Part shown: positions 9,602 through 64,000 of the stretch, piece after piece | How positions within the stretch are numbered: the stretch's first letter is position 1 | Layout: the number at the start of each line of letters is the position of its first letter | Assembly (NCBI GenBank): GCA_030770535.1 | Contig: JASVEC010000002.1 | Location: 1,612,001-1,676,000, forward strand | Source of the DNA: Batkoa obscura | Taxonomy: Eukaryota | Length of the DNA: 64,000 bases | Reading direction: 5' to 3' | Translations under genes and position numbers: made by a program | The notes under the pieces: model-generated | What the model saw: only the letters and a program-made list of their open reading frames with translations | What the model was told of the DNA's origin: nothing | The model's database searches: none

Positions 9602-9700
9602 GGGGGTGTTTTTTTTTAGCTTTATCGCTTTTTCCATTTTCAAGCGCTATTTGAGTGGAAAGGTTGTCAGTGAAATCCTTAAACAAAAAAATACATCCCC
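9602..9700 (-). mobile_element. MITE family 1 copy
   Basis: GGGGGTGTTTTT...AAAAATACATCCCC TIRs, ATAT flanks. Confidence 0.88.
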
Positions 9701-10051
9701 ATATGTTATATTTTTACAAATCAAGCGACTATTTAATCAATGTATTTTCAGGTTATTTAGTATGATCCTTGTTTTCAGCTTTTATTTTAAATCAAATACT
9801 CAACTTGATCATCAACTTTATTTTTTCTATTATTAACACAATATTATCATTTTATTATAAATAGATAGGGCAGAGTGTGGCATATTGTTGGATTGAATCC
9901 ACTTTATTGGTTCAAGATATTCAAGGTTTTGGTTTTAATTCTATCATCTTTGTTTCGAAAGCTGAGGTCTCAGTTAGCATTTATCTCATAGTGTGAAATC
10001 TGGTACTCAGGGTTTGGAGTCAAGAACAGCTATTGCTGGGTTGACTACACT

Positions 10052-13157: not shown

Positions 13158-14347
13158 CTTTTTCTTACTTGGCTTTTTATTCATTATATATATACTACTA
13201 AATATTTTAGAATCTAGATTAATGATTTTTTATTATACTCAACTTTGAAGACTATTTATACAAATAAGTTTTACATTAATCTTCATTATTACTTATCAAG
13301 TCAATTTAAAAATGGTTTAAAATCAAGCTAAAATTAAAACTTAATGCTTTATATATTAAGAAGTATCGATTCCTATAAATAGTAACTATCTCTTATTAAA
13401 AAGTTTGAAATAGCTTAAACCAAATGTTTGCTTATGAGTGCCCAGGATTTTTTAAAAAGAATGGTTTAATTTAAGCTACTGCAGCTCTATTGCGATATGA
13501 CTAACTGTTCATTTTAAAGTAAAAGTCAACTAAAACCAGATAAAATCTAACGATTAGATTTAAAGAGCCAAAAAAAACGTATGATTGACTCTAAAAACCT
13601 TCACAAACTAGACCACAATAGAGATGCAATAATTATATAAAGTTTCTTTTACTTTAATGCTCTTTGTTTTATGTTTATTGGTATGCTCTATATGCACTAT
13701 AGTTTTGCTTATTTCCTGATTGGTTTAATTTAGCGAATTTTTTAAGGTTGAATTTACTGTTTTTAATTTAAATATATTATTAAATGATTATGCTACGTAA
13801 TGTAATTTAGTACTTAATTTATTTTTAATCATTTTAATCCTTTAATTTAACTTTTATATAATAATTTGTTTTGATAGTTATAGATAAATGAGCACTTTTT
13901 GTTTTTTCTATCTTTATTGCAACTACAACTTTGTTAATTTATCCTCAAGTGATAAATGAATTTGTTATTCTTATTCTAAACTATTATATTAAAAAATAAA
14001 TTAAAAATGGTTTAATGAGAAACAGCTACTTTATGTATTATTAAAAGAATAAAAATTTATTTAAAAATTATTTAAAAATTATTTAAAAAATTTAAAGAAT
14101 AAAAAGGGGAAAGAAAAGTTTAAATATTTACTTTATAAGTAAACTTTTCTTTATTTAGGCCAAAATAACAAAAATTTGACAATCGCCGGAATAGATGTTC
14201 CGAAACATATTTAAAAAAAGAATGCATTGAATCAGTATCATAATATTATTATGTCGTATTAAAAATAAGATTGATAAATTAAAGAAGAGGAAGAGTATAT
14301 AAATGATCTTGTAGCAACCGAAATTAATTTAAAATTTTAATCATAAA

Positions 14348-14845
14348 ATGTCAGATTTAATTCAATATAAAATTAATCATTTAAAAGTTAACGCTTATTC
14401 CCCTGAAATGATTGTACTTCCTTCATATACAAAGAAAGTTAATTCTTTATCTTTACCTTCAATATCTTCTTTTATAAATGATTTAAATTATAACCAAGCT
14501 TTCAGTAATGATAATGAAAAATCAAAGGATACTTACATAGACAAAGAGTACACTGCTAGCTCATCTTATTCCTACTTATCGAGTCCATACAAGAGAACAG
14601 AATTAGATTATAATAACTTTTACTCAAACATTGAACTAGCGATTGATGAAGGGTTAGAACGTTTACCCATCAAACCTAAAAGAAAAAGAGCAGGCAAAGC
14701 ACAAATCAAAATACTAAATCAAATATTCTCAAAAACACCTTTTCCTAGCACAGAACTAAGGTCATTACTCTCTCATAAATTACGCATGTCTCCAAGGGCC
14801 ATCCAAATTTGGTTTCAAAATAAGAGGCAGATCAGCAAGAATTAA
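14348..14845 (+). CDS. Homeodomain transcription factor (single exon, C-terminal homeodomain)
   Basis: KPKRKRAGKAQIKILNQIFSKTPFPSTELRSLLSHKLRMSPRAIQIWFQNKRQ; LPSI motif. Confidence 0.9.
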   Translation: MSDLIQYKINHLKVNAYSPEMIVLPSYTKKVNSLSLPSISSFINDLNYNQAFSNDNEKSKDTYIDKEYTASSSYSYLSSPYKRTELDYNNFYSNIELAIDEGLERLPIKPKRKRAGKAQIKILNQIFSKTPFPSTELRSLLSHKLRMSPRAIQIWFQNKRQISKN

Positions 14846-19133: not shown

Positions 19134-20207
19134 ATGGTATTTGAACCCCCTAAGCAAATTAGAAATAACAGTAACCAATATAATGTTCAGACGAAACAAT
19201 ATAGTAGTGAAAGTGAGTTATGTGTTTACCATATTCACCCAAGTAAAACTGGTAACAACCCAGCACCATTGATTGTATTTATTGAATCAGCTATCTTTTT
19301 ATTACCTGAGGCAGCGATCGGCTTTGATCAAGCAGCTGAAAAATTAAGTCAGTCAGGAATCCACGTTGTACGATTGCAATATCGTTTAACTACCAAAGAA
19401 AATAACCTTCAATTTCCAAATCATTTACTTGACTGTATGAAAGGATATATCGATATCATAACAAAATCAGATTTAAACTATAGTTCCATTCATTTAGCTG
19501 GTCATTCGGTCGGTGGTTTAATGTCTCTTTTGATTGGTTTTAGTTCAACTAAGTATTTAAAATATTTAAATACTAATTATAATACCAGTGATTTATTGTC
19601 GCTATTTAAAAAAATCAATGGTATTATTTCAATTGCTGGTGTATTTGATTTAGCTGCAATTGCTAAATACAATGCTTTTTTTAACAATAATGTTGCTACC
19701 ATGGCTTTTCAAGTGGAAGGATGCCGAATTTCAAAGGTAGTTATACATTCGCCTGAGTCAGAAGATATTTCAAGAGTGTTTGTTCCTCCTCCAATAAAGT
19801 CAGAAGAAATTTCACGTGAATCTACAAATACTACGAAACCTGATCAAGTTGAGTCTGAATCTGAAAGCATAACACGAATGGGTATATGCCATCCGAGAAT
19901 GGGTATTTGTAGTACATTAAAAGAATATTCAGCAACTTCAATTTCATTAAAAGATATTAATGAAATGAATTATTCTAATTTACCAAAAGTTTTATTAATT
20001 GGATCTAAGGAAGATACTGCTGCCCCAGTGGAACAACTACTTCAATATAATCAACACTTATCAAGTTTAAATGTCAAGGATGTCACCTTATTCTATGATA
20101 ATTTTGGTAACCATAATCAGTTATTTTTAAATTCATCTGTTATTCAAAAAATGGCCAACTTTATTCATTCCAGTAATTATAAGAATCTCTATATGGCTAA
20201 GTTATGA
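19134..20207 (+). CDS. Derived alpha/beta hydrolase (paralog B) with internal [R/K]-X5-P repeat insert and PTS1 (AKL)
   Basis: Closely similar to paralog A outside the insert; AGHSVG, KEDTAAP, GNHN, terminal AKL; intronless. Confidence 0.88.
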   Translation: MVFEPPKQIRNNSNQYNVQTKQYSSESELCVYHIHPSKTGNNPAPLIVFIESAIFLLPEAAIGFDQAAEKLSQSGIHVVRLQYRLTTKENNLQFPNHLLDCMKGYIDIITKSDLNYSSIHLAGHSVGGLMSLLIGFSSTKYLKYLNTNYNTSDLLSLFKKINGIISIAGVFDLAAIAKYNAFFNNNVATMAFQVEGCRISKVVIHSPESEDISRVFVPPPIKSEEISRESTNTTKPDQVESESESITRMGICHPRMGICSTLKEYSATSISLKDINEMNYSNLPKVLLIGSKEDTAAPVEQLLQYNQHLSSLNVKDVTLFYDNFGNHNQLFLNSSVIQKMANFIHSSNYKNLYMAKL

Positions 20208-21623
20208 TTTTGCTATCTTGAACATTCTACAGTATTAGAATAAATTACATCCTATTTTTTTAACATTTTTTTAAATTGTTTATTTGATGAATTTTCTAAA
20301 ATTGAACTTTTTTTATAAAAGTAAATTTAAGTAAAGCTTCAAACCTCCGTATCTTTTTTATAGTAAGGTGTGAAGGAGTTAACTCGTAAGTTTTCTTATA
20401 TACTACTTTTCAAATATGTTTAAACCCTGTTATTTCTTATTTAAACTCTTGAATCTTTTTAATACTAATGATGTCTTTACATACCATATCATAGCCTCCC
20501 ATTCCTTTTTGTCTTTCTCTAAGCTTATGGATCATCTACTCATATTATTTAAAAATCTCAGCTGACAACACCTTCCACATGATATTGGTTTATCTTTGTC
20601 TTGTCAGAGCCAAATTATAGGAGTTAGGATCTAAAACAACTAAACATAGTCCTTCAAAATTAAAAGCAAGAGCACTTACCTTAAACCATAGCTTCCCAAC
20701 TTAGTAATCCCATTTACTATATCTGTCCATGGCATCTCTTATTTAGTTACATTGTATTGTCCAGATGATTAGCTAATACTTAATTGAAATTGGGACAAAA
20801 TACTTGTGTAGCATAAAATTTTTGTGATAAAAAGGCTCATAATTTTTTTTATGAATTTTGGCAGAAGTCCTCAAAATTAATCACTTACATCAAACATAAA
20901 GCAAGGCTAAATTTACAATGTTTGATTTTGGATCGGATTTTTCTAATTAGTAGTATTATTACAAAGTAATTTAGATAGGAGTTTCAAATTTGTTTATTAA
21001 TTTGTAATATGAAAATCATTTTTTATCTTTTGTGATTGATTGAAACGGTATTAGTCAGTATACAAAATAAAAACAAAAATAAAATAACAACCAAAATAAA
21101 ATTATTATCAAAAGTTCCATCATTTCAATCAATATTCAAAAATAGGTATACCACAATTGTATTAAACTTTATTATATTCCAACTTAAAAAAGCAATAACT
21201 GATACAATTAAGTTGTATTCATTCTTTGGAAGCACTATTTTTTTTTAAAACTATAGTAATTATTTTTAGTATTTTATGCATCCTCTTCCGTCTTATGAGT
21301 TATAATATGACGTATATAATCATACTTAATTCTGGTGCGAGTAATTTATTTTGAATTCATTCTCTGTCTTTATCTTATATCAAACTGGAATACTAAATTT
21401 AACAATTATCATCGGTTCAACTATGATTAATATCATTTCCTTATTTCAATACAAAGAAATAAGATTTGTTATAACAATTAGTTGGATATTATTTTATTAT
21501 TGTATTTTAATTATTATATCTAATATATCTAATAGCGCTTTTTTAATTGGCAAATTAGACTTCTTATATCTCAATTGTATGTTATATTCTACTATAGCTT
21601 TTCTTTTAAAGATTCTAATATTT

Positions 21624-21720
21624 GAGGATGTATTTGTGTTTAAGAATTCTGTTAACAATTTTTCCGCTTAAATAGCGCTTAAAAGATGGAAAAAGTAATG
21701 AAACCAAAAAAAACATCCCC
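21624..21720 (+). mobile_element. MITE family 1 copy with ATTT target duplication, abutting a partial opposite-strand copy (21721-21765)
   Basis: ATTT-GAGGATG...CATCCCC-ATTT. Confidence 0.85.
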
Positions 21721-22642
21721 ATTTGAGTGGAAAGATTGTTAGTAAAATTAAGCAAAAAAATATAGTTTAATATATTATTAACTTTTGTACTGTTGAATAA
21801 AAACCCTTTTTAAACCAATTTGATCGATATAATATCTCCAGAAATCTTAATTTATTTATTCTTTATTGATAATAAAGTATTTATTATTATATAGCATTTT
21901 AAGTAAAATCTAAAGCATAAAGTTTTAAGTTAATTTAAAATAAACGTTATTATTATAAAAAGCCCAATTAGATTATTATTAATTATCATCTATCAACTAG
22001 TCTAAAATGTAATTATTCTATCTTATTTTTTAGCAAGTGAAATTAATAAAGTGTTATTTAGAAAATCAGTTTAAATGAACAGTTATTTAGCTTTCTGTTG
22101 ACTTTGATATCTTGTATCACATTATTAAAACATTAGTAGAGGTAGCTTTATCTTGAATCTTCTCAATAATAAGATTATTATTTAATGATTTTTTTTAAAA
22201 AACCCTTAAATCATTACCATAAATGGTAAATACTTTAAGTTTTAAAACAATTAATAAAATCTAATTGAATATTTTCAACTATAGTAAAGAGACAACTATT
22301 GCTAAGTTTAAATTAAATGATTTAAAATAATTAAAATAGTTAACAGCACCACTATATTAATAAATAAAATTGTTAATATCGATTGAAACAACCATTCTCA
22401 TTATACCACTAAAAGAAATATATTTGAGTATCTAACTAGAAATTCAAGTAAGCCATTTCAAAAATATTAATTCAAATAAATTAAACCGCAAAGGTAGTTA
22501 ATCCAACTAAGATTCATTAAGCTAAATATACCCTAGAAAAAAATATATAAAAGCCTCAACAGTGTACACCAATTTAATATCATCAACATTTCAATATCTA
22601 AACAAACAATCTACTAAATTTCATTAATAATAACAGTAAAAT

Positions 22643-23641: not shown

Positions 23642-25052
23642 ATTTTTAATGCTTTGCTGAACAAGAGTCTATTTTTAAATTTAAATTCAAATTTTAAATT
23701 TTATAGTTTATAGTCTATATTTAGAATTTATAAATATATTCTATAGTTTTAAATAGCTATTTTTTTGAAATATTTAGAATATGTTTTAGTTGTATTTGAC
23801 TTAGTATTGAATTGTTTTAATTTCAATATTTTAAAATAAATTCATGAACACCCTATCAAAAAACTCAGCAATTGTTAAGCTAATTTCTTAAATGATCAAC
23901 TTAATTTTGGGTTGCATAGAAATTTGCCAAAGTTGTTAATTATTGGTTAAAACTCTAAATTTACTCATAAAATACTAATTTTTATCTGAATTCTTCATCA
24001 AAAAATACTTCAGTTTTAACTATTTTTATCTAATCATAAAATCATCCTTACTATTTAATAAAAAATTCAAATTAATAGAACTAATGGAGCTAATAGACAA
24101 GTAAGCCATGTATTATTTTATTAAAAATAGAACTTGATTTATTTATAACCTATACCCCTCACTTAAAAACTAAGATCTCAGTCCCTTATACTAATCTTAT
24201 TTTTAAATTATTTTATCTTTCCAGTTTTTTAATTAGTTTATTCATTGTAATTATTAAAAATATGATATCAAAACAAGTAGTCTACAAACTACGTCAATAG
24301 AAATATGGTAAAAAAAGTAAGTCATTTTTTATTACAAAAAATTATAAAAGTTAATGCTAGCTGATAAAGTGTATAATAAAAGTTAAGTCTATTCAGTTAA
24401 ATTTGATATTCAATATTTTGAACTTAATATTAAATGCTCCCATATTGTTATCAATTCCTTTAATTTAACTTTATAGTACTGGATTTCTTATTAAACAATT
24501 TACTTATGCCCATATTTTAATTAACGATTCAATTTATCCCTTTAATTCAAAGTTGAGAACAAGGACCTGTCATACTTTCATGCTGGAATCTATCAGTGAT
24601 GAATTGAAGTCTTGTCAAATACAGTCATAGCTATTTTTTTAAATTGTGTTCTGGTTGGTCTAATTTTTAAGTGAAAGGATTCTGTTTTTAGAGTAGAGAT
24701 AAAAAATTTACTAATGTTTGAATTTGGGGACATTTATCAACAAGTAAATAATTCAAGGCCTAAAAAAAGGATCAAAAATCGAACAAAAAAAATAAAAATC
24801 AATATTTTGAATCAAACTAAGTCTTCAGATAAGCTTAATTATAATATTTCGTTTAAAGTACCCTCTAATTAAAAATAGAATATGGATTTGAATTTCAATG
24901 ACTGTTTCATTATAAAAATAGAATTTGTTAAAAATCCAAGCAAGTTCTGCTTAGTGAGATGGGTTGAAATAAACAAAAAATTAGCTTAAAATACGATATA
25001 TAAAAAGGTAACTAGAATATTAAGAAAAAATAAACAATTAATAAATTGAATA

Positions 25053-41075: not shown

Positions 41076-41321
41076 AAGCCTTTAAGTATGTTTGGTTCAT
41101 TTTTAAATTCAAAGTTTATTACTCAATAGTTTTATAGAGTTGGGTATAAATATATGGCGTTGATTATAATAATATTTCCTATCAAACATGAACTTTATTT
41201 TCTCAATAAATTTATAATATTTGAAATAAGTTTCTTGTGTCGTTTATTTGAATAAGTCTAAAATAAATTATAAAATTATGAAGATGGGAGTAAATTTAAA
41301 AATGGTTTAGGATTAAAATAT

Positions 41322-41419
41322 GGGGATGTATTTATTATTTGAGAGCTTTACTAATAATTTTTCCGCTTAAATAGCGCTTAAAAGATGGAAAAAGTAATGA
41401 AATCAAAAAAAATATCCTC
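41322..41419 (+). mobile_element. MITE family 1 copy (a more diverged relative may lie at ~41463-41565)
   Basis: ATAT-GGGGATGTA...TATCCTC-ATAT. Confidence 0.85.
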
Positions 41420-41713
41420 ATATATATAATCTTTAAATTTATTTAGGTTTAAGTTTGTAAAGTTATGTGAGTATTTTTTTATCCCATTATTTTATCTGCT
41501 TTTTATACTATGAAAATAATGGGAAATTATTAACTAAACGTTAAAGTAAAAAAGTATCCCAATATGAGGGGTACTATAAAAATAAACAAAACAGCATTTT
41601 TAAAATAAGTAAAAGCGGGAAAAGGTGAGTTTTGGGTTTAAACTGTCTCACGTTAAAAGTAGATTTACTAAATTTAATATCAAATAGTTAATTAATTTAT
41701 ATATATTGTTCAA

Positions 41714-42970
41714 TTAAGAATGTTTCGATCTACTCTCTTTAATAAGCTCTCTTTCAGGTTTTGTTTTGAAAGCAAGCGAAACAAAGTTAGGCACTTTATT
41801 AAGCAGATCTATATAATAATTTTGTAAAGCTTCATTTTGTCTCACTCTAGTCAAATTAAGTTTGTTCATTTGGGCCCATTTAACTGGCATTGGATTTCTT
41901 TTAACAACTTTATAAGGCCTCAAGCCTTTAGGTGTAATTGTGCTAACATTACTAGTTACTGGTCCAACTTGATTTGAAAGCTTCGAAATTAATTGTGGTA
42001 ATGTCAATTGCGAATTGACTCCATTTAAAATCGGATTATTATCAATCAGACTTTCTATCACGTTCGTGACGGCTGGTACTGGGTCATAAGACCTTCTCTG
42101 TACATTTTGTTTTAACGTAGTTGGATAAGAAGGATAGGTATAACAATATATATCTTTAGTGGTATTTAAGGTGCTGTTCACGTCATACTTCCAAGTAATC
42201 AATGGGTCATTGAGCCCTACTTTAGTTTGATAAACGTCCCCATCGTATTGCAGCGACTTTGGATTTCTACGCTGCCAATTATACCACAAAAGATCCATAA
42301 ACGAATGATGTAAATAAAACAATGGATCGTTTGGTGATATCATCTGAGTAAAATCCATCCCACCACCAATATTATTATGAGGATCGGCATGTACCTGCTC
42401 CACATTATCTTCAAAATCAGAAAACTTTTTTAGGTTCAAGAAAGGGTTAATCACTTCTGGAATTGCAAATTTACTTATTTTGGAACCTAAATCATAGCTT
42501 CTTTGCAAGCAATGATCTGTATCGTATTTTAAAGTCATATAAGCAAACTCGCCATCTTGTACGCAGTAAGTGTTATTGCTATTACCATTGCTACCAAAAT
42601 ACCAATCCGAAAGCACTAGAGAGTCTTGTGGTGCTTGGGCATCGATAGACCAATCCCAATAAGGTAGCATAACCGAACTGTCAATCTTTTGTAGCTCCAT
42701 TTCATATAGTCGGATAAAGTGACGATGCCAGGGTAAGAATCTAGGTACTGAGTGGGAGATCTCATGGTTTTCATTATGTACTTTGGTAAATTGTTCATGA
42801 ATTGATAAGTTAGTATTGCTGTATTGTGTGTTATGTAAAGACCTTACAGCATCGGTGAATCTATATAATTCATCCGAGGTGAGGTCACGGATTTCTTTAC
42901 GTTCTCGCGGAGAGGTACACGTTTGCGTGTAAACAACGGCAATAAATAAAGGGAGGTATAGCAATTTCAT
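41714..42970 (-). CDS. Secreted tyrosinase (type-3 copper protein)
   Basis: Signal peptide; RKEIR; CuA region H...H..PRFLPWHR; LPYWDW; CuB region HADPHNNIGG...SPNDPLFYLHHSFMD. Confidence 0.93.
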   Translation of the reverse strand: MKLLYLPLFIAVVYTQTCTSPRERKEIRDLTSDELYRFTDAVRSLHNTQYSNTNLSIHEQFTKVHNENHEISHSVPRFLPWHRHFIRLYEMELQKIDSSVMLPYWDWSIDAQAPQDSLVLSDWYFGSNGNSNNTYCVQDGEFAYMTLKYDTDHCLQRSYDLGSKISKFAIPEVINPFLNLKKFSDFEDNVEQVHADPHNNIGGGMDFTQMISPNDPLFYLHHSFMDLLWYNWQRRNPKSLQYDGDVYQTKVGLNDPLITWKYDVNSTLNTTKDIYCYTYPSYPTTLKQNVQRRSYDPVPAVTNVIESLIDNNPILNGVNSQLTLPQLISKLSNQVGPVTSNVSTITPKGLRPYKVVKRNPMPVKWAQMNKLNLTRVRQNEALQNYYIDLLNKVPNFVSLAFKTKPERELIKESRSKHS

Positions 42971-45413: not shown

Positions 45414-45920
45414 TTACACACCACGAAGTAGCAAGAATCCTAAAGTAGAGAATATAAGGATGTGAAGCTCCTTTGGGATATTAAAAAATAGTTTGAAATC
45501 CCCATTTTCGCGAGAAAAAGTGCCAATGGTTGCTTCTGGTTTTAAGGAGCAATTTAAGATCCATTTATCTGTATAAAATGTCCAATAATAATATATGGCA
45601 GCTTCATGACTTGGACAGATAATAATTTCAGCATGATAACCTTCATTGCTTTTTAGTTTCAATTGGAATTTTAAATCAGAAAGCTTACTAGCTGGGTCTA
45701 CTAAACTTATTTTAAACTCGTTTTTTGCGAAGAAATGTGCTTTAGTTATTTTTGCTAATGGTAAATTATTCGCAGATAATAAAAGAGTGCATTTATTATT
45801 AATCAGTATGGATTTGTATTGGTGATTCAAAGTGGAGTCATCAGTTACTAAAGATATATTATAATTTTTTAATTGATTATTTGGATCTTTTTCAAATTTA
45901 TATTTTATTAAACTTTCCAT
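45414..45920 (-). CDS. Hypothetical 168-aa protein, paralog of 52282-52794
   Basis: Shares LPLAKI, LSDLK, Y.AEI.I, YYWT and KEL..L..TL.FLL.R with 52282-52794. Confidence 0.75.
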   Translation of the reverse strand: MESLIKYKFEKDPNNQLKNYNISLVTDDSTLNHQYKSILINNKCTLLLSANNLPLAKITKAHFFAKNEFKISLVDPASKLSDLKFQLKLKSNEGYHAEIIICPSHEAAIYYYWTFYTDKWILNCSLKPEATIGTFSRENGDFKLFFNIPKELHILIFSTLGFLLLRGV

Positions 45921-47432
45921 GCTTAACTACTATTTTGTTAGAGTGCTTCTTGATATTTATTGTATATATACTATATCCTTTTCCTACTCTATTTAAGCTT
46001 GATTACTTGGCACTTACCTAGATTGATATTTTGTTCCAGAGCAACAATTATAAAAACTCGGAAAGAAATTGGAACCTCCAAAGTAGGTGACCTTTATAAG
46101 GTTGAAAATCAATTAAAAAATAAAGTATAAGCATAAATGTGATTTCATATATATATATATTATTACTCATATTTCAAATCCTTTAAAAAAGGTAGAAGAG
46201 TTTACCTTTTGGATTTGAGATCCTTTGAGTTTTATTCATAAAGTTATATTATGATTTACTACGTTTTAGTTTATAGCTATATCAATTTCTAATAATTTTA
46301 TTAGTCTTATGCGAATTCAAAGTTGCCGAACCTTGGCAGATAGAATGGTATAGTATAAAAACACACCAAAAGACACGTGACTACAGTATATGTAGTCAAG
46401 AGTAGTTTGTAATTGGTAACATATACCAATATCCTTGGCTATTCGTATTCGCGTAATAGTTAATAAAAGGTGGCATTGTGTAAAAAAAAAGATTGAATTT
46501 ATCTAAAACTAAGTAGCAATTATTTTACTATTAAACATAAGTAGTAAAGTAAGATATAAAAAATAATTTTATCTTATAGCTATTGCAAAGTTATTGACAA
46601 AATAAGTCTGTAAAACTTTTGACACTTAATATTATCATATAATATAAAGAGTTTAATAATTTTTGTATAAGATAAAATTCAGTTAAAAAAATATTTCTTA
46701 TGTTTCACATTAAACTAGCTTTTTATAGCATATATTGCTAGTCTTTCTTGTTTTTGACTATTATTCAATATCTCAAAAATTACTATGTAAATTTCAACTT
46801 AAATGATCCTACTTTGGTGCATAATGCCAAGGGTTTAGAAAAGATATAGAATATTTATACACAATATAGCCATTATCAGTATGTTCAATATAAAACTTAT
46901 AAAGCTGATATTCTACATACATGTTTATATAGTACTTTTAAACACAAATGAAAAAAAGTATTTAATTACTTTTTACTGAAAAACAACTGTTCAAGTTTAA
47001 CCATTTAATTTCTAGGATAAGTTGTGTCAGATTGTAAAAACTAAACTTGGATTTGTGTAAAATATAGTAGCAAGTAAATTTAATAACTTAATAGTATTCA
47101 TTTACTTGTATATTAATTTACTCCTTTACCTAAAATTATAAAAAGTATATATTCATAAAGTATAATCAGTTATAAAAAAACATTAGTCTTTGAAACCAAT
47201 AGCTTATTTGAACTTTTTCCTTTAGACTTAATCAAACTGCTTATTCTAGCTCAATAAAAACAAAATATAATTTAGTGTCGTAAAAAAAGTTCAATGATAA
47301 TCAAATTCAGATTACAAAAACCAAAATCTTGTCATGGTCATTATGCTATAGATTTATACAACTTTTTCTTTTACTTATCTTTCAAGCTATAAAATCAGAT
47401 CACAGACTTGTCTTTTGATTTATATAAGATAT

Positions 47433-47860
47433 AAGTATGTATTTTTTTGTTTAAGAATTTCACTAACAAGTTTTCCATTAAAATAGCGCTTAAAAGATGG
47501 AAAAAATAATGAAATCAAAAAAATATCACTATATTGTATATATGATATATTATAGGTCATGTCACTTTGAACTGTTTTGAAGAGCTTATTTACCTTAAAC
47601 AAATTCGTTTTTGTTATTAAGATTCACTATAAATATCATTAAACTTTTGCTTGAGGGAATAAATTTACCTTTAAATCTTTTACATCTTTATAATATACAG
47701 GTTTTTTAAACCTACCTGGCTTTCCCAAAAAAATACTTGAACAAATATATAAAAATAAGGAACAAAGGAGTGTTTGTTTGGCTTCATTACTTTTTCTATC
47801 TTTTAAGCGCTATTTTAGTGGAAGATTTGTTAGTGAAATTCTTAAATAAAATGTATCTCC
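47433..47860. mobile_element. Two MITE family 1 copies in inverted orientation (47433-47530 +, ~47766-47860 -)
   Basis: Conserved core AAATAGCGCTTAAAAGAT on opposite strands. Confidence 0.8.
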
Positions 47861-48033
47861 ATATCATATATATTTTGATAAAATTTTCCAATTATTTAAT
47901 TTTAAGTAGATATAATAGCTATCACTATAATAAATAATAAAACAAGTTACAAATTAAGGTTTATATAAATTTATTTTAATATAGAAAGTTAAAAACGGAG
48001 CTAGGGATCAAAGAAGCGTTAAAGTTTACGATT

Positions 48034-49711
48034 CTATAATTTAGAAGCCAAAAACTTAGGTGATGGTCTATCTGGAATAATAAAATCTAAAATAGCTTGG
48101 GCAATTAATGGATCCTTGGTAATATCATTGTGTCCACCAAAATTGTTAGCCAAATATTTAAGTTTATCAAATCCAAGGAAATTCAAATGTTTTGCAAAAT
48201 TTAAGCTATGGCCTGAATGAACTAAAGTATCATTAGTCGAGTGAATGATCAATGCTTTAGGTAAAGTAGTATAAGGTATCATCTTCAAGTGAGAGCTAGT
48301 AACATACTGTGGAGAAACAGATCTTAAATAATTTAATAATTTTTCATCGTTTGTAATCAAAGATTGAGAATTGTTGTTGACTTCATTATTTGGAGTTATA
48401 GAGTTGGAGTTATTTTGAGGATAACTCCATTGAAGTTTGGGCTCTTCTTGAGCTTTTGGTGAATATTGTGGTTTTGTATAAACAGATCTTGTGATGCTTG
48501 ATTGACCGTTTGTATTAGGACCAATAGTCATGGTTCTCTCGGTAATAGTAACATGAACATCTTTAGGTATAATATAATTATAAAATTGAGTTCCGTGACT
48601 GGGCTCTATTCTAATACTTTCAGAGTTGTTCAAATCAGTTCTATTTTCAGTATTTGAGGAATCTCTTTCCCCATTAATTGGACTTGGTACAATAAGTCTT
48701 TCCCCATTAATTGGACTTGGTACAATAAGTCTTTCTGTATTATGAGGGCTTACTACAATGAGCCTTTCTGTATTATGAGGGCTTGGTACAATGAGCCTTT
48801 CTGTATTATGAGGGCTTGGTACAATGAGCCTTTCTGTATTATGAGGGCTTGGTACAATGAGCCTTTCTGTATTATGAGGGCTTGGTACAATAAGCCTTTC
48901 TGGGTTACTTGAAGTATAAGGCGCTGATCCAGAAGTAAATTGCCCAATATCATTTTGGTTTAAGGAAACTTCATATTGAGAAACAAATGATTGATTTGCG
49001 TTTTGAGCCTGTATTGAATCGGCGTGAGAGAATTTGGTAATTCCGTTGTGATTAAAATAAACATTCTCCTTCGCAACTTGAGATAAATCAAAAGTTCCAG
49101 CTAAGGAAACTAACCCTTTTATTCTGGATATTAAAGTTGTTTCCTGATCTTTACTGCTTGAAAGCAATGGTAAATATGCACCAGAGTCCAAAGCTATTAT
49201 ACTAGCAAGAAGCGCACCAGATGAGTGACCGCCAATGTAAATTTCATTACTTGCAAATATACTATGAGTTAAAATATGTAAATAACCCTTTAAACAGTCT
49301 TCAATGTGATTTTTGAATTTAATATCACTATGGTTATTTGTGCGATAATTTACCCTAATTACATTAAGCCCCTCATCACTTAAACGTTGAATAAAATTTT
49401 CAAAATCAACATGACTAGCACTTAAATATGGGAAAGATTCAAACCAAATCAAAACAGGAGCTTTTGAATTGTACTTGCATGGATAAATATAATACTTACA
49501 TTCTTCGGATTCTTTTGAGTAAACAACCTCGAAGCCAGAAGAAGGTTTTGATGAGTCACTAAAGAGTTGATTAATTAATAAAGAAAAAAAATACTAAAAT
49601 AAATTACTTTAAAGGTTTTGATTCATAAACATTTACAGCACTATAAGGGCTTGAGGTGATAATATTCCCTCTAGTACTTTCTAAATCAGTCATATGAGTC
49701 CCAATTACCAT
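48034..49711 (-). CDS. Derived alpha/beta hydrolase (paralog C, ~542 aa, 2 exons) with large repeat insert and PTS1 (SKL)
   Basis: ATG 49711; phase-2 intron 49559-49607 restores an N-terminus (YSKESEECKYYIYP...APVLIWFES) homologous to paralogs A/B; GGHSSG, GTFDL, STNDTLV, GGHND, terminal SKL. Confidence 0.87.
48664..48900 (-). repeat. 33-bp coding tandem repeat x7 encoding ERLIV(P/V)SP(HNT/ING)
   Basis: Near-identical gggcttggtacaatgagcctttctgtattatga units on the + strand. Confidence 0.97.
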
Positions 49712-50798: not shown

Positions 50799-52281
50799 TT
50801 TTATCTTTTAAAGATTTGCTTCTAAATTATATTATCAATTTTTTAGTTAAATACGTGACAAAAAGGTATTTCTATATGCTTTATCATAATAAATAATCGT
50901 ATAATTTTAATAAATTAATTTTTATTTCTTAACTGTAGTTTCAGAACTGAGAAATATACTTTCTAAAGCGCCTAGACTGTATAGTATTGACTTGTTATCA
51001 ACTGACCTAATGTTGATAAATTTTAATTATAGTCAAATCTAGTTAATGTGTTTTGTAAGCAATAATCAACCTCCTACTAGAAATTAGAATACTCCAGTGA
51101 AATTTAAATTTGAACAAATCAAAAACCAGGGCTAGTCAAATTTCTTGTACAAATAGCCTTTTGATCAGAAAATTAGAAACTAAACAAATAAGATTGATCA
51201 AATTATTCGTGTGGACAACAATCTGGTAGAAGATTGAAAACTGATTGAATCATAGTAGCTAAGAAGCATTTGACTTGAAAAGTAAGCTGTCCAAAACCAT
51301 TAAGTAGCTAGATGATGGGCTAAATAAGCTAACATTGTATATATCCTTGTTTTTTTTGCAAAAGAAACAAAGTGTTTAGACTTAAACATACATACTTTTT
51401 TTTCCTTAAAATTCCTCTTCATGGAAGCTCTAAATTTGATAGTATTAGTTTAAGCTATTTGAAAACCCAAATATTGGCAATCCTAAACTCATTAGTTTGT
51501 AATAAAATTATGACAATAAATTTATTATATAATTTATGTTTAGTATCTGAATTTTAAAGTTATCCACATTAAAAAGCTTAACAAATTATATAAGATAATA
51601 GCTATTGCTACTTTATAAGCTTTATTTAAGTCCCAAGGTTTATATAAGTAATATTAGTCTAAAATCAAATAGCTTTTAAACCATTTGATTTTATAATATT
51701 AAATTTACCAATTTAAAACATCTAAATATATAAACATATAAAATAGACCAATAGTTAGCTATTTTATAGTATTAGCTTAAAGTAAATTTTACTATCTATT
51801 TTATATAAGACAATCACTTTTATTAAAGAACTATTAACAAATATGTAGTAACATTTGATGTTTACTGTAACATATTATTTATAGATGTTTGAGCAACTTA
51901 TTACACTTTTGTTAAAATGAAATCACGATAAGTATAAAATATGATAAATTAATACTAAACTAATACTTTGATTATCAATTATCACTTAACTATCGTTTTA
52001 TGTTAAATAGATTATTATTTTTTCATATCCTTAATATTTAATAATTGATACGAATAAATTCCAAAAAAGGAAAATCGGTAAACTCTTAACTTTTATAATG
52101 CAACTTTATTTGCCAACCTTGAACATGCCAAGTTTTAAGAAAAATGTAAAGAACTTCTAATCTAATAAATGAATATTTAGGATAGCACAAATCTGGGCCA
52201 AGTAATAACATCAAATCCAAATAGTATAAAATGCAATCATAAATACTCTTTTTTTAAAAAACCAAAATCAAAGCTATCAAA

Positions 52282-52794
52282 ATGAATTCTATCATATGTT
52301 ATCAATTCACTAAAGATACCAAAACTAATGTTTATAACTTAAATCCTAAGCTTGACTATGTCAATCAAAAATATCAGTACTCACTCACATTTACTAATAA
52401 GAAGACTGCCATTGTAGTTGATGGCTTAGGTTTACCTTTAGCAAAAATTGAAAGTTGTGGCCTCTTTAATATAAGCAGATACAAGATTATTATTGCCATG
52501 CCAGAATTATGTCTTTCCGATCTTAAGATAAGATTGATAATACCAAGTAAAAGTAAAATGAATGCTTATCGCGCTGAAATTAAGATTAGCTCTCAAAACA
52601 GCAAGCAGGGTGTATCTTATTATTGGACTTATTACAGTGAAGAAGGCTGGTTTTTAAATAGCTCTAAGGATCCCGAATTATCTATTGCTTCCTACAGTTT
52701 TAAAAATCCAGTTTATACTTTGTTTTGCAATACTTCTAAAGAACTCAATGTTTTATTTTTGACAACTCTCTCCTTCCTTTTATATAGAAACTAG
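52282..52794 (+). CDS. Hypothetical 170-aa protein, paralog of 45414-45920
   Basis: Collinear similarity to 45414-45920 across the full length. Confidence 0.75.
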   Translation: MNSIICYQFTKDTKTNVYNLNPKLDYVNQKYQYSLTFTNKKTAIVVDGLGLPLAKIESCGLFNISRYKIIIAMPELCLSDLKIRLIIPSKSKMNAYRAEIKISSQNSKQGVSYYWTYYSEEGWFLNSSKDPELSIASYSFKNPVYTLFCNTSKELNVLFLTTLSFLLYRN

Positions 52795-53576
52795 TCATAA
52801 AATTATTGTATATATTTGCTCCTTTATTAACATCCTTTTAACTTAATAAACTCTACTTATTTTAATTTTTATATTATTGCAATTATCATTATTATCTATG
52901 AGATATGGGGTCTAATAAATACATTATTTTATGCGTTATTTTATTGATAGTAAAATAAGCCGAATTGTTTAGGATATGAACACTGTTCAAGTTATATACA
53001 TATTATATTATAATAAGCTTTAATATTAATTAAGTCAAAATCTTAATTTAATTCTCCGATCTATCCTAGAGTGATAGAAACTTCTTTACTTGACTGCGTG
53101 TAACAATATGCCAATATTATCTTTATAAGGATCATTATGGTAATATAAAATAACAGGGAAATAGGTTTTTTCATGATTTGCACAATCACACTTACACTAA
53201 ACTAATGATGGATCCTAATATCCTGATTCTTACGCTGTATTCATTACAATTTTAAATTTTGGGAGAAAGCTCACAGATGAAAACTTTATTAGTGAAATAA
53301 AGTTAATTGAATAACAAGGCTAGCTATCCAAGAGATATAGAGCTTCTAGACCCCTTGCGATTCTTTTCCAGGCGGAGTCTTAGAAAATCTAAAATCCATT
53401 TCCCAGGTGTTACCATTCAATAAACATTAACTGGACCGAAGGAACTGATTATTCATGCGCAAAGGAAAGTCTAGTATAGATTCTATACATAGTCCAGATG
53501 ATAGAAGAGCAAGAATAAGCTAAAAAAAAGTATGAATATGTTTGCCATGTTAAAAAAGAGCTTTGTATTAGTATAT

Positions 53577-53878
53577 GGGAATGTTTTTTTTGACTTCATT
53601 ACTTCTTCATTTTTCAAACACTATTTGAGTGGAAAAATTAATAAATTTTTTAAAAAAGACATCCCCATATATGCTTTTATTTAGGAAACAAACCCAAGCT
53701 GTTATATAAGTAAATTACTTGTTAATATTTTTTGAGCGTTCATTTAAATGTAAACTAAATATATCATGTATTAATACTTGGGTTTTAATATGAGGATGTT
53801 TTTTGGTTTCATTCTCCATTTTTAAGTACTATTTCAGTGGAAAAATTGTTAGTAAACTTAAACAAAAAATACATCGCC
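53577..53878 (-). mobile_element. Two MITE family 1 copies (53577-53666, 53792-53878)
   Basis: TIRs and ATAT flanks; CTATTT(G/C)AGTGGAAAAATT core. Confidence 0.82.
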
Positions 53879-54462
53879 ATATAATTTTTTTAGCAGATAA
53901 ATGAAAAACTTATTGTATCTATTTTTACAAAATGATATAGATAAAGTAATAATTAAAATGAATATAATTATTATGCTGATAACTGTAAAAGTGAAGCCAA
54001 CTATCGTATTGAAGTGTCCTAAGATTATGGGATATATTATATTATGATGCCTATGTATCTGCTGTTAAACTCAATTTAGGTTGTATAAATATTTATCGCA
54101 TATATTTTATATGATCTTTAGTTATATTATCTTTTACAAAAATAAAGTTTAAATATTATAAATAAAAACCAAACAACAAGCATATAGTTTAACAAAATAA
54201 TTATTATATATTTATTAAATAAAAACATATTTATAAAAGTAACGAGACAACTGTTGTTTACAAATTTGAAAACGGTAAAAGATTTAAATTTTTATCTTTT
54301 ACTTTAACTTTTAAATGTGTTAATGAATATAAATAATTAGAGCTTTTTAAAAAGATAATTGGCATCGCCTAAGTAAAATATTATTAATGAAACATAAAAA
54401 AGCTATAAAGTTTTCATTATATAAACCTAGAATTCAAATTCAAAACTACTTTTTAATGATAT

Positions 54463-54557: not shown

Positions 54558-55450
54558 ATATGTATTAAATTACGATAACTTGAGTATAAGATTCATTTCA
54601 AATAAACAAGCAAGTCTAAAGACGTCTAAAACAATAACATAGTTAAACGAAAAATGTATTTATAGTTTATAAAAACCCAAGGATCAGATAAGTGGACACT
54701 AATAATATTTTCAAAATGTTTAGCATATTAAGGAAAGTGATTTATTAATGAAAAAAGGTTAAAAAAAACTTGAATGTGAAGTCCAATCAGAAAAAAGCGG
54801 ATAGGTAATATGGCTCAAATATATGGTAAAGTAATAATGATTATAGCTAGAGGCCCCCAAATCAATGGTTAAAAAGCGAATAGCAGTCTGACATATCACT
54901 CCTAGGGCTAAGTGTGACCTGAAAATAGACTTTTTGCTTTGAGTTTTTTTCGGCCTAAATGATTTAAATATAATTCTTTAAAGACTAAAAGTATGCCACT
55001 CTTGTCACAGTCTTTCTAATAACATTCTAACTTGCTTTTTAATAGGCTTTGACTATAAAGGTCTCGAATTTTATAGACCATGCTCTAAGGTTACCTTAAT
55101 TTTATCACTAAAATGTTAATCGTAACAGCTAAAACATTTAAAGGTATTAGCTATTAACTTAAAAAAGGAATTTGTTAATTTGGTAAAACGATCTGGCTTT
55201 AAGTTTAGTATTTTATATTAAAAAAGCAATCAAATAGATTAAAAAGTAAACTGTGATATTTTTGGGGCACCAAATTAAGAATAAACTACAAAACTGGATG
55301 GATTGCAAAATAACTCATGAATAGATGTTATAAAATGAGTTGATTGGAAATTGTGTCTTAATTCAAAAGTTCAAGGTGGCTATAATAACAATTAGTAATT
55401 AAAAATAAGTCAAGGATTCTTTTTCATTAAAAAAGACAATATTGAACAAC

Positions 55451-57103
55451 ATGAATAAAATAACAAAAGGTGATAAGTTGCCGAACAGATGTGATAATTG
55501 TAGTAGAAAGAACATAGGTTGTGATAGGATGCAACCAAAATGTCGAAATTGTATCAAGAGTAAACTTGAATGTACATTTCAAAGACCCATTAAAAAAATA
55601 AACAAACTACATTATATGGATAAAAATTTAGTTAAGTTTAGTGTTTCTATAAATAGTCGTATGGTTAAAGATACAAATCCAATATTTAATATATATGATA
55701 CTATACAAAACAAATATGCCTTACATAATATTTTAGTTATGTTGCAATACCCTAGTCCATTTCAGATAAGTAGTAATGTATGCATTGTAATGTCTCTAGT
55801 TAAAAGTATCCAATGCTATAGACCTAAAGCTAATATAGAATTAAATGGGTTAATTACTTTTAAACTAAATGAGCGTTTCAAAATAGATTTATTAAATAGG
55901 GCGTTATCAGAGTTTGAATTATATAATAGGACACAGTTAATGTTATTTCATCCTCGAAACATCAAGTTAAATGAAAGATCTGAGATATTAGTAGATATTA
56001 TTTATTTATTTGGACTAACAAAATTAGAGTGTAACAAAGAAATAATAAATTATTATGAAAACAAAGTAAAAAATCATTATTTAAATTTGATGAATATTCG
56101 ACCAAGTTTGGATAATTTACAAGGTTTTTTAATTGTATTATATGGATTAAGACAATATCGTTGGATAGATAAAATCAATTATTCGCTTGTCGGCTGGATT
56201 TTACGTGTTTCTCAAATTTTAGGACTTCCTTTTAGTAAAAGAAAACACAAGAAATATGTTCAATTAGAAAGACAACTAGCTTATAATTTATTGCATCAAT
56301 TATTAGGAATTTTCAGTATCAATTCTTTCTTTTTTAGTGCAGTTCCATATAAATGTAAAATTCCATGTCTAGATTTATATATATCTTTTTCAATTCATTT
56401 TGATTCTAATATAATAGGTAATTTATTAATATTTTAATATTTTAATATTCAAAGCTTATAATCATTTATAGCTAATTTAATCTTTAATGACTTCATTTCC
56501 GAATTTAATAATATTTGCTTTTGTTTAAGTCAAATCAAATGTAATATTTATGAGACTAAAGAAGGAATTGAAAGTTTAAAACAAAGCATTTTACGGTTAT
56601 TAAAGCGAGAAGATAAAATTCATAATCAATACATTGGTTTATTAAATCAGTATTGTAATAATGAAACTTATTTTACGGCATGTATCAATTTATATCATTA
56701 TTATATATCTTATTTCATTCACTCTATCTTATTCTTTAACGCTACTGATTCTCCTACTTCAACCATGGCCTATAAATTAGAATTATACTGTGGTATTTCA
56801 CAAAGAGAATGGATTATACGAACCCTCGACTTATGTTTACAATGTCTAAAGTGTTTCATCGATTTACCTTTAAACAATAACTCTTTCTTTATTTACGCCT
56901 TTATAAATCAACCCATATTATTTTTATTGAGGTATAAAAGTAAGCTTAATTTATCAAAAGATAACGTTAGACTTTTGAAGTATAACCAAGCATATGAGTT
57001 ATGTAAGCAAAAGTTTTTACAAATTATACAGAGCCCTTTTGATAATGTTTATGCACAATCGAACTTGAGATTAATTGACACAATGCATTCATTAACTTCT
57101 TAA
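55451..57103 (+). CDS. Zn(II)2Cys6 fungal transcription factor (2 exons)
   Basis: CDNCSRKNIGCDRMQPKCRNCIKSKLEC binuclear cluster; intron 56418-56471 joins in frame to ORF 56765-57103. Confidence 0.88.
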
Positions 57104-57164: not shown

Positions 57165-58060
57165 TTATAATTTAGTTTTATTATTGTTTAAAAAATTGAA
57201 TAATAAGGTAATCAGATTAATATCACGTGGCATATCATTATGGTCCCCAAAATTATCAACAACCATATGTACTTTGTTAAATTTTTGTTCCATTAATTTA
57301 TTAAGGAAATTATAGCCTTGGTCATTTGGTAATAGAGTATCAGTATTAGAATGGACAAGTAAAAATTCTTTATCGAAACAATCTAACCCGTTATTTCTGT
57401 TATTAAATTTAATAAATTGTGGTGAATAGTTATCCCATCTATCTTTATCTTTACCAAAACAAAGCTCAATAAAAGCATCCTTATAGCCATCATTATATTT
57501 CACTAATAAACTAATATCAAGTACTGAAGCAAGTAACATTAAACCTTGTACTTTCTTTAATAATTGAACATCATCTTCGTTAATATGTGGGTAATATGTA
57601 AATAAATCTAACATAATCATCGAAATCATAAAGCCACCAGCAGAATGACCAGCCAACCAAACACCTTTATATTTCAAATCCAATTTTAATACATGTAATA
57701 TTCCATTTAATGCATCATTCAAGTGAGTTGGATATCTTACATTATTTTCAAAATCAGTGATACGATATTTTAATAATACGAAGTTAATTCCCAACTTACT
57801 TAATGTTTCTCCCATAAAGAAGAAATTACTACTTTGATCCGTTACCCAGCCACCGCCATGAAGTAAAATAATTAAGGGTTGATTTGGTGCTCCATTGAAT
57901 ATATAATAAGTTTGATCTATTTCATTTCCATACTTTCCATCTGGATTACGTTCAATTCCTCGAGTTAATATACTATGATTATTTATTTAAATAAAGCTAT
58001 TAAATTTAAATTCAACACTTACTGAGGTTTACTTAATAATCTTTCACTTTTAGCATCCAT
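57165..58060 (-). CDS. Canonical kynurenine-formamidase-like alpha/beta hydrolase (paralog D, ~281 aa, 2 exons), no insert, C-terminal TKL
   Basis: ATG 58060, phase-2 intron 57973-58022; LIILLHGGGW, YR, YPTHLND, AGHSAGG, YSP, HSNTDTLLP, GDHND. Confidence 0.88.
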
Positions 58061-60464: not shown

Positions 60465-61790
60465 TATTCTACTATTTATTTTTCAGAGCTTGATTATTTT
60501 ATTAGTTTCTATTTACTCATTTATATACAATAAAGATGGGAATAATGAGAACAGAAAAAGCCACCCGTTTTATTTATTTTCATACATATATTGAAATGCT
60601 AGTGTAAAATTTATATGCATAATTAATAGTAAATTAGATTATTTGTTCTATCAAAAATTACAACATCAATATAAAAAATTAGATTATTTCCGACTTTTTA
60701 TTTATTTGTTCTTTTGATTAATATTGAATGTATAATTGTAACTTATTTTGTTATAATAGATTGATTTGAATGAAGTTTGATCTATCTAAATAACAAAATA
60801 TCTTAAATAATGGTAATGATAATCTATATTTAATTTTAATGAAAAATAATAATAGTGAATTTATTAACAAATAGACATAGATTTTTTCTTAAAAGAAAAT
60901 CTCTAATATTTGCAAATAATAATAAATCCAATTCCTTAATTATAGCAATAAATTACTCAATATGGAATTAAATTTTATGTATGAACTTTTAATTTGTATT
61001 ATTTTATATTATCATTGAACTTTACTTTTTTCGATGCTTTTAATTCCAATATCCTTTTTTGATACAAGACAAAGGATGTTTATTATCTAAAAAATGGTAT
61101 ATTATATTGATTATTTCAATCTAGGAATATATGAAAATGAACTTTATTTTTATTGATTGCGAAAAGTAGTACAAACAGTAATTCTATTTTTGGTTGAACA
61201 ATGTCTAAGCTATCTAAAATCATATAAAGGAATTTGTAAATACCTTTTTATGTTTATTTACAATAAATAAAATGCTATAAAGAACTTTATAATATTAAAA
61301 ATTAAAAAGGAAAGTATAATAAAATAAATACAAATATGAAAGACTTATCAATCAAATACAATTTTATACTGATTGTAATACTTTATTAAAACAGAATTAA
61401 AATAAAACGATATAAAGTTTGTATATTTATTTCACATTGTTAATTTTATCTTTTACTTCATTTTATCTCCATAGTAAAACAATTTCAAAATTAGTTGATT
61501 TGTTTAAAGCCTTAAAATCCTTAAAAATTAGAAATAAAAACACAAAACAAAAGTATTTACTAAAATAATAATGTTAATAATAGTTTGACAAATTAAAATA
61601 TTTCAAAGACTAAAAATGTTTAAAAGTTATATTAAAAAAGGAAAACTATTGTTACTTTTTTTTATTAAGTTAAATTATCATAAATGACTTAAGTGCATTA
61701 TAAACTTATTTAGCCATTAATTATTATCCTACCATTTCTAAAATATCTGAAAAATTAGCTCTAATAATAGTATTATTTAAAATAACATAC

Positions 61791-61888
61791 GGGGATGTTT
61801 TTTTGGTTTCATCACTTTTTCTATTTTTTAAGCGCTATTTGAGTAGAAAAATTATTAGTAAAATTCTTAAACACAAAAATATATCCCC
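61791..61888 (-). mobile_element. MITE family 1 copy with ATAC target duplication
   Basis: ATAC-GGGGATG...TATCCCC-ATAC. Confidence 0.88.
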
Positions 61889-61976
61889 ATACTTTCTTAT
61901 TAAACATTGTTTTCCTTAATAGCTATATGAAAGTTGATGCTCAGTGGTTAGAGTTAAAAGCAGTTTTTAATTAGTT

Positions 61977-62334: not shown

Positions 62335-62537
62335 AGAATTCTGAGTTAATTGTATCATATGAATTACAGTCAAATTAATTATAAGACTGTAGTTAGTTTT
62401 GTAAGCAAGTTAAGTGATTATTATGTTATGACTAATCATAGAAGCTGATAAAGGAATATTTATAGTTATTTAACATTATAAATTAATAAATGAACTTTTT
62501 TAGAGATTAAAAACAGGCATATTTATTGATAACATAT

Positions 62538-62636
62538 GGGAGTGTTTTTTTTAACTTCACTACTTTTTCCATTTTTTAAGCACTATTTAAGCGGAAAATT
62601 TGTTAGTAAGATTCTTAAATACAAAAATACATCCCC
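62538..62636 (-). mobile_element. MITE family 1 copy
   Basis: ATAT-GGGAGTG...CATCCCC-ATAT. Confidence 0.88.
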
Positions 62637-63040
62637 ATATATTTATAAACTTTTACTAATTTGATTTAAATAACTAGGATTATATATAATATATAATATA
62701 TAATATTTTTATAATTAAATAAAATTAAGTTTAATATTTATTTCATTATTATTGATCCTTTTATTATTTAACCCTTTGAGTACTAATATTTATCTCAAAA
62801 TAATTTTGTTCAATTAGATCATAATTTCTAATTATTATAAAGCTGGATTCGTTTTTGAAATTCAATACTTAGAGAATTAATTTGATTAAAATCATACTTA
62901 AATAATACTCATCCTAGTTGAATTTTAATCTACAAGAATTTAGTGAACATTATTGTTCATCCATAGTACTCAAATAGTTAATGATTTTCTAATAATGTAT
63001 TCAGTATAAAGATTAAAAATTAAAAATTAAAAATTAATAT

Positions 63041-63139
63041 GGGGATGTACTTTTGTATTTAAGAATTTTACTAACAGCTTTTCTATTAAAATAGTGCTTA
63101 AAAGATGGAAAAAATAATGAAGTCAAAAAAAACACCCCC
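63041..63139 (+). mobile_element. MITE family 1 copy (a partial copy also lies at ~63604-63673, - strand)
   Basis: ATAT-GGGGATG...CACCCCC-ATAT. Confidence 0.88.
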
Positions 63140-64000
63140 ATATACAAATAAAAAATGTGTTAATGATAATTTTGTTGCTATTAAATTTTATTTTTTTAAA
63201 GGGGTTTTGTTAAATTACAATTAAAGCGATAATAGTATCCTTTCTATTATTGGATTTAGCTTATTGCTTAGCTTTTAAGATCAGAAAGTAAAGTCAATGA
63301 AAATAAAATAAAAACAACTTTAATTTTAGTATTAATAATTCTTTAAAAAAAGGACAAAAAGTATATTGACTTGAATTATTAGTATAGTTTCTATTCTTAG
63401 ATGAAACTAATAAGTCATTTGGTATATAAGACACCGAAATTAAGAAACTAGTCATAGTGGAAGTAAAAGGTAACTTGCAATTAACTTCATTAATAATTTA
63501 ATAACGAATCCGAATTTTCCAAAAGGATCTTATCAAATTCTAATTAATGCGATCTTAATAATTTAATATTATAATAAATCATTAACTTAAATTTATAACT
63601 TAAAGGTGTCTTGGTTTCATCACTTTTTGCATTTTTTAAGCACTATTTGAGCGAAAAAATTGATAGTAAAATTGATAAAAGATGTTTCTACCTACTCAAA
63701 TTTACAATACACTGACTTCAGAAAACAAGTAACTTAATATAACACTACTTTAATTCTTTTATAGGTTTTCTAATGGTGATCTCTATAATTAAATTATCTA
63801 ATATACTAACTTTTTTAAAGCTTAATCCTTATATTTATGTCAATTGATATAGATTTTTTAAATAAGTGGTTGATTAAATTGCAAAACAGTTGCAAAATTG
63901 TATTAAGTCTAATAGTAATTCATCCCAGTTTTTTTTAGAGATTCTTATTGAATTTAAATAAACGCGATCATCAGTACCCTTTCTATTACTGGATTTCACT

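Follow-up and report, generated by a model that had tools for sequence, protein, structure and literature searches.

Gene C spans positions 48034–49711 (minus strand) of the window, by which we mean the whole stretch of 64,000 nucleotides of AT-rich fungal DNA that was analysed, and encodes an enzyme on the scale of 543 residues. Exon 1 (49608–49711, minus strand) begins with the first ATG at 49711, followed by a further in-frame ATG at 49693. Its translation agrees with the N-terminus of P0003, the C protein of an independent strain, and RNA contigs extend to 49705. The sole intron, of 49 nt and with GT..AG borders (49559–49607, minus strand), is spliced in contigs of the runs X5 and X6 (joint 49558/49608) and not in X1 and X2. 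No run is recorded as RNA, and X5 and X6 were taken as RNA from this spliced joint. Exon 2 (48034–49558, minus strand) was assigned by Pfam and fold search to an alpha/beta hydrolase of the BD-FAE family that is interrupted by a lid insert.

The hydrolases in the window are four in number, A, B, C and D, and all of them score above the Pfam BD-FAE cut-off. Paralogs A (10728–11837, minus strand) and B (19134–20207, plus strand) belong to the same clade as C by sequence, Pfam and tree, and their triads are intact. A shares 98% identity with a protein of Neoconidiobolus thromboides FSU 785 that carries the NCBI name alpha/beta-hydrolase, which indicates that the window stems from this species or one very near to it, and from a different strain. 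C and A are approximately 33% identical, with a body divergence of about 1.7 substitutions per site. Paralog D (57165–57986, minus strand, its 5′ end lying upstream of this stretch) is a sister hydrolase without the insert, which keeps HGGGW and ends in TKL. A FastTree analysis of 29 sequences, comprising top matches only and with a bacterial root, placed A, B and C in one clade (support 0.91) with D adjoining (0.82).

Homeobox paralogs (2921–3631 and 14333–14845, 39% identical over 104 residues) are located some kb before hydrolases A and B respectively, and this pairing of homeobox and hydrolase in the sequence suggests that the A and B regions are an old segmental duplication. Either side of gene C, at 45414–45926 (minus strand) and 52258–52794 (plus strand), there are paralogous proteins of approximately 170 residues, 35% identical and with no Pfam match. 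Within 8 kb, gene C also has as neighbours a tyrosinase with a signal-peptide-like start (41714–42970, minus strand) and a Zn2Cys6 transcription factor (55409–57103, plus strand) that is arranged tail to tail with paralog D; nothing in the window ties them to one pathway with it. Another protein with a signal-peptide-like start (25050–26660, plus strand) repeats a 39-bp Ser/Thr/Tyr-rich unit about 28 times and has no Pfam match; the product appears mucin- or adhesin-like. A repeat of about 110 bp is dispersed over the window; its copies are 72–89% alike, often form inverted pairs and stand out in both DNA and RNA runs by a very high summed depth of contigs. Copies are found at 47407–47523, 47767–47875, 1317–1425, 9595–9710 and 21606–21722, and further ones at 29138–29390, 41314–41435, 53572–53883, 61783–61891 and 62531–63144; one pair is directly 3′ of gene C. 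The repeat looks like a miniature inverted-repeat element. Three tRNA-Asp(GTC) genes were detected (28905–28976, 29620–29691 and 34621–34692), the first two of which form an exact 110-bp inverted duplication enclosing a copy of the dispersed repeat.

C matched PF20434 with 43.3 bits (cut-off 26.8, E 3.9e-11). The solved folds closest to it were HSL-like esterases, BD-FAE-type carbohydrate esterases and yeast YDR428C, tied at Z 23–24 over approximately 240–250 residues. In a model built from an alignment of 115 sequences, pLDDT exceeded 90 in most blocks of the body and was mostly below 50 in the insert; for paralog B, the fold from its single sequence (pLDDT 36) was unusable. The catalytic triad of C is complete: Ser113 (exon-2 numbering) in the nucleophile elbow GHSSG (49216–49230), Asp444 in STNDTL (48223–48240) and His477 in GGHND (48124–48138), all on the minus strand, align with columns at least 90% conserved among the 115 sequences. 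Where the HGG(G/A) oxyanion loop (HGGGW) is expected, the alignments show ESFPY in C (49426–49440, minus strand), ESAVF in A and ESAIF in B. Among 154 proteins compared, the change from HGGG to ESAV, ESAI or ESFP was found only in these three paralogs, and only in them does an ES(A/F) loop coincide with a long lid insert. Two insert-free N. thromboides paralogs, P0007 and P0009, have the oxyanion loops PSGGW and YSGAW, i.e. the loop is labile within the expansion. The original prediction had judged the repeat hard to reconcile with a random loop of a housekeeping esterase, and indeed the host is not one: it is a member of a species-level expansion with an altered oxyanion loop. C ends in SKL (48037–48045, minus strand, read from the sequence) and both A and B in AKL, which we take to fit the PTS1 consensus for peroxisomal targeting.

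The lid insert of C comprises 233 residues (48328–49026, minus strand, as delimited by alignments and the model), and the inserts of A, B and C range from 69 to 233 residues. Its position is that of a lid loop which is short in relatives, before a W-x-x-ASP motif and, by homology, above the active site; the same site accepts short inserts in other relatives (P0019). At 48670–48900 (minus strand) it carries the array that had been predicted, seven in-frame 33-bp units translated as ER-LIV(P/V)SP-(HNT/ING): ERLIVPSPHNT four times, ERLIVVSPHNT once and ERLIVPSPING twice. Tandem Repeats Finder reported 48683–48902 with a period of 33, 6.7 copies, 92% matches and zero indels. Downstream on the same strand are the units R-TMTIGP (48517–48537), R-SVYTKP (48469–48489), which is preceded by SIT, and K-LQWSYP (48418–48438). 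These were thought to share the spacing of the array, which is only partly the case: the R/K-x5-P spacing is common to them, but the 11-residue period is absent, the units being 16–17 residues apart. The spacer end SITR (48487–48498) does recur in paralog B as proposed, in ESIT-R-MGICHP. Short beta-strands are predicted at residues 313–348 of C, and strands over several units at residues 278–290 and 313–359. The beta-strand part (about 48500–48650, P0003 residues 310–363) shows a weak match to the N-terminal end of the profile for Rnl2 RNA ligase (16 bits versus a cut-off of 197, E 0.005). The position of the adenylated Lys is not Lys there, and the resemblance is probably due to chance.

A register scan of the insert of A (11019–11261, minus strand) recovered MILQYP, PVTNEP, MGICQP and MIVFAP together with decayed units, and all four of its arginines are followed by x5-P. 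In the insert of B (19710–19916, plus strand) the scan found K-VVIHSP, R-VFVPPP and R-MGICHP, with two of five arginines in the R-x5-P register; the corresponding count for C, with its array collapsed, is three of six. In the 11 cores listed, position 3 is without exception occupied by a beta-branched or hydrophobic residue (11 of 11).

The repeat is exonic, as the original prediction supposed: contigs of X5 and X6, i.e. two of two RNA-type runs, reach the array from either side, and no joint that skips it was listed. The cores are thus part of the mRNA, as in a fused RiPP precursor, by spliced contigs that enter the array; none of them spans it, and the figure of seven units comes from the window assembly. 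The array itself is not an assembly artefact, as it is also present in P0003. Repeat number varies between strains as envisaged, with seven units here and five in P0003 (two HNT and three ING units, one of them with the variant LIVPGP), a change of whole units that preserves the R...P register. Besides the array, P0003 and C differ in exon 2 by one further amino acid. The proposed 6:1 ratio of LIVPSP to LIVVSP turned out to be strain-specific, the units of P0003 being four LIVPSP to one LIVPGP. That the amplification is recent is favoured by the copy numbers, but a run about 93–94% identical reaches both array ends.

The view of the downstream units as cores that are being maintained was not upheld by run X6, a relative with 50 differences over 740 bases. 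Among 40 of its approximately 100 changes that were listed, residues 304–355 contain 11 replacing and 3 silent codon changes, versus 1 replacing and 11 silent ones in the C-terminal body (p = 0.0005), so that change in the downstream insert is approximately neutral. The R...P register, kept in array units between strains, is broken in R-TMTIGP, whose final P is S in X6; for this unit, the original prediction is thus contradicted by a standard that it had set itself. R-SVYTKP is unchanged in X6 among the changes listed, which is uninformative at this divergence, and the S of K-LQWSYP is N in four of four runs and in P0003. Within the LIVPSP units, the sole change among the same 40 of approximately 100 is a silent one in the first Arg. 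The replacing/silent ratio and the lost P indicate that the downstream region of C is today largely unconstrained and that not every unit is a live core.

Such changes would be expected if the insert were a tolerated disordered loop driven by slippage, its R...P register inherited from an ancestral unit and decaying, and the array an ordinary coding minisatellite. The copy number of short tandem repeats can shift without selection, and seven versus five units beside one other amino-acid difference in exon 2 agree with such a neutral origin. So do the near-neutral downstream change and the lost P in X6, the decay of several units in A and B, a pLDDT below 50 and the occupied insert site in other relatives.

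To assess the R-x5-P register, we counted it in the three inserts with the C array collapsed to one unit. Nine occurrences were observed versus 1.08 expected, a value reached in 0 of 20,000 shuffles, and the other nine spacings of R...P (1–4 and 6–10) were at chance. R-x5-P was also the best among all residue pairs and spacings, and an equally extreme pair of any kind turned up in 0 of 300 shuffles, both for A+B+C and for A+C. The same test gave 83 of 300 shuffles for B+C and 282 of 300 for collapsed C alone, which is not significant and is one more point on the neutral side. With R-x5-P from A as the prior, collapsed C had 3 occurrences versus 0.42 expected (p 0.009), the amplified unit among them. 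As units arise by duplication, they are not independent in these counts. Units were duplicated at periods of 7, 11 and 13 residues, in each case with the register kept, and of an adjacent MGIC-type pair one intact copy is left in A and one in B. The register is thus beyond chance across A, B and C, in line with the original prediction.

The bodies of A and B differ with a dS of 0.94 and a pN of 0.16, i.e. silent sites are near saturation. In an aligned two-unit block, pN was 0.18 for R, P and spacer (10 codons) and 0.66 for the cores (10 codons); the block is short, and because R and P anchored its alignment, their conservation is overstated and the contrast partly circular. R-MGIC(Q/H)P shows three silent changes and one replacement between A and B. 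These values show fixed flanks around variable cores, which supports the original prediction. As far as can be read from the sequences, the core varies while its flanks stay constant, and this pattern has persisted across the divergence between A and C. Repeated variable cores with conserved flanks hence lie in the enzyme chain as in a fused RiPP precursor, more weakly so for the downstream units of C. A neutral loop does not readily explain that R, P and spacer are conserved like the body at near-saturated silent sites, nor that the register recurs in C at about 33% identity with the excess found under the prior from A, and we consider a neutral origin improbable.

Selection on the motif itself could produce a similar pattern. 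R-(hydrophobic)3-x2-P may be functional as a beta-strand that docks a partner, with avidity from the repeated units, or as a bait for a trypsin-like protease, whose cut would open the lid and activate the hydrolase. This requires no new chemistry, accounts for the fixed R and P and the hydrophobic position 3 with the other positions loose, and agrees with beta-strands predicted over several units in a loop located by homology over the active site. A bait leaves the constant proline six residues past the Arg unexplained, and docking is at odds with the spacer (P-ESED) kept between A and B while the cores are randomised, the opposite of what a docking motif within a free linker would show. For neither variant was a usable Atlas match of the insert or a partner found. 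Docking and bait are jointly a possibility to which we give a rather low probability; if the motif reading alone were true, a lineage-specific enzyme clade would hold a selected motif without explanation. Of the motifs compared by consensus, an SH3 class I ligand was dropped because Pro is absent from position 3, PTS2, mitochondrial presequence and calcineurin LxVP motifs because they fit C only, and an amyloid signalling motif because the unit is proline-rich.

The view of other BD-FAE genes comes from protein searches. The word-indexed ones returned only A, B, C and D of N. thromboides and one bacterial protein; they missed C from A and are thus weak below approximately 40% identity. In a metagenome scan, none of the 81 pattern matches was a relative. 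A profile search against 1.84 billion representatives resulted in 372 matches, 150 of which were listed. The nearest relatives among those listed were five N. thromboides paralogs, four complete and one partial, with no such insert, and no insert-bearing relative outside N. thromboides was found among them (names are known for 10). A pattern gave the cap length for 74 of 154 proteins (B was missed), and among these, several R-x5-P in a long cap occurred only in A and C. An Atlas search with A gave only BD-FAE clusters of 260–306 residues, with no usable match for its insert. Within the window, no standalone R-x5-P precursor frame was found, and the other clusters of at least three R-x5-P are the antisense frame of the array and a low-complexity THOC2 tail.

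We tentatively propose that the lid insert of C is an enzyme-embedded multi-core peptide precursor, self-processed by the remodelled hydrolase, and put this at somewhat below an even chance. It is favoured by the register statistics, by the contrast of flanks and cores between A and B, by an ES(A/F) loop confined to A, B and C, by duplications of 7, 11 and 13 residues in register, by the register common to C and A, and by the beta-branched or hydrophobic position 3 of the cores listed. The lid position and the oxyanion loop altered in the same clade tie the units to the active site circumstantially. Against it count the fold, which is esterase/formamidase-like and not prolyl-oligopeptidase-like, and the loss of HGGG, which could mean lower activity. 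Cleavage of the loop would also part Ser from Asp and His. The register in C alone is not significant, the downstream insert is nearly neutral in X6, and units in A and B have decayed; in addition, the system is seen in one species, and the loop accepts short inserts in P0019.

The chemical steps of such an embedded precursor are all drawn by analogy with POPB, PCY1 and fused burpitide cyclases. The SKL end would direct C into peroxisomes. Cleavage behind the Arg, carried out either by an Arg-specific protease or by C, would free the N-terminus of the hexapeptide, with the Glu gained in the oxyanion loop as a candidate contact for the Arg or the amine. Ser113 would then attack the bond following the terminal Pro. 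Release of the acyl-enzyme by the peptide's own amine would give head-to-tail cyclo-LIVPSP (calculated MH+ 607.381), and release by water would give linear LIVPSP (calculated MH+ 625.392). More array copies would mean more peptide per protein, with units gained and lost and some downstream units of C decaying. The most far-reaching version, a formamidase-like esterase of an early-diverging insect pathogen turned into a self-processing peptide cyclase, with its substrates in the lid loop, that makes head-to-tail cyclic hexapeptides in the peroxisome and represents a new fungal RiPP class and ligase family, we regard as unlikely. Its cyclic products, which are doubtful to the same degree, would be cyclo-LIVPSP from C and VFVPPP, MIVFAP, MILQYP and MGICxP types from A and B. 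Beyond cyclo-LIVPSP, the MH+ calculated for cyclic forms is 609.397 (LIVVSP), 577.371 (LIVPGP), 637.371 (VFVPPP), 659.359 (MIVFAP), 746.391 (MILQYP) and 639.274 (MGICHP); linear forms would be heavier by 18.011 and cyclic forms that include the Arg by 156.101. If true, it would establish a new architecture for ribosomal peptides and a small single-domain peptide cyclase, with product masses ready for look-up.

Only 15 natural products were known from Zoopagomycota in 2023, according to one report, which gives two azoxybenzenes for N. thromboides (PMC10478498); with the chemistry of this group nearly blank, a precursor hidden in an esterase would matter. Another source argues that pathways unique to Zoopagomycota escape current predictors; its BD-FAE count is 25 for N. 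thromboides and 23 for Conidiobolus coronatus, with inserts unmentioned in the passages concerned (PMC11105155). The literature searched, which comprised papers free of subscription, contained no match to the six core sequences, no known peptide product and no published report of such a system.

Compared with known systems, C resembles BD-FAE/kynurenine formamidase-like hydrolases (PF20434; YDR428C, 1vkh) in fold, triad and family match. Unlike typical BD-FAE proteins of 250–310 residues, A, B and C have an R-x5-P lid insert and have lost HGGG. With MSDIN/POPB of Amanita and with PCY1, C shares a variable core with a final Pro and a Ser-Asp-His hydrolase in which an acyl-enzyme is possible in principle. 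The catalytic part of Peptidase_S9 is weakly matched in Pfam by C (29 bits) and D (27.7 bits; cut-off 22.6), the listed fold matches being esterases. In contrast to POPB and PCY1, C has no propeller domain and its fold is nearest to HSL-like esterases. It also differs from MSDIN systems, as described in PMC9233826 and PMC11253845, in having no separate precursor or MSDIN leader and Arg instead of Pro before the core. An MSDIN precursor was accordingly rejected, the units being located inside the enzyme and after Arg.

Cores fused to their own enzyme and cyclisation by a serine hydrolase both have precedents (PMC11253845 and PMC9233826). The fused burpitide cyclase SkrBURP has four core repeats, and autocatalysis of fused precursors was first observed in borosins (PMC11253845). 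Like SkrBURP and the fungal borosin methyltransferases, C unites short repeated cores with a putative processing enzyme in one chain. Where these use a copper BURP domain or a methyltransferase, the enzyme here is a serine hydrolase, and the units are not terminal but inside the catalytic domain, between the nucleophile and Asp/His. KEPs, which PMC7329392 defines by a signal peptide and Kex2 sites and describes as common in Zoopagomycota, and dikaritin-type precursors likewise have tandem imperfect cores following a basic residue. The units of C differ from KEPs in being embedded in an enzyme with a peroxisomal-type end and no signal peptide, with a single Arg in all but one unit. A KEP or dikaritin precursor was thus discarded as a candidate, the N-terminus of C being polar with no hydrophobic stretch by eye and the units following a single R. 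If the embedded-precursor reading is true, surveys that require a signal peptide and Kex2 sites would pass over a precursor of this kind inside an annotated esterase.
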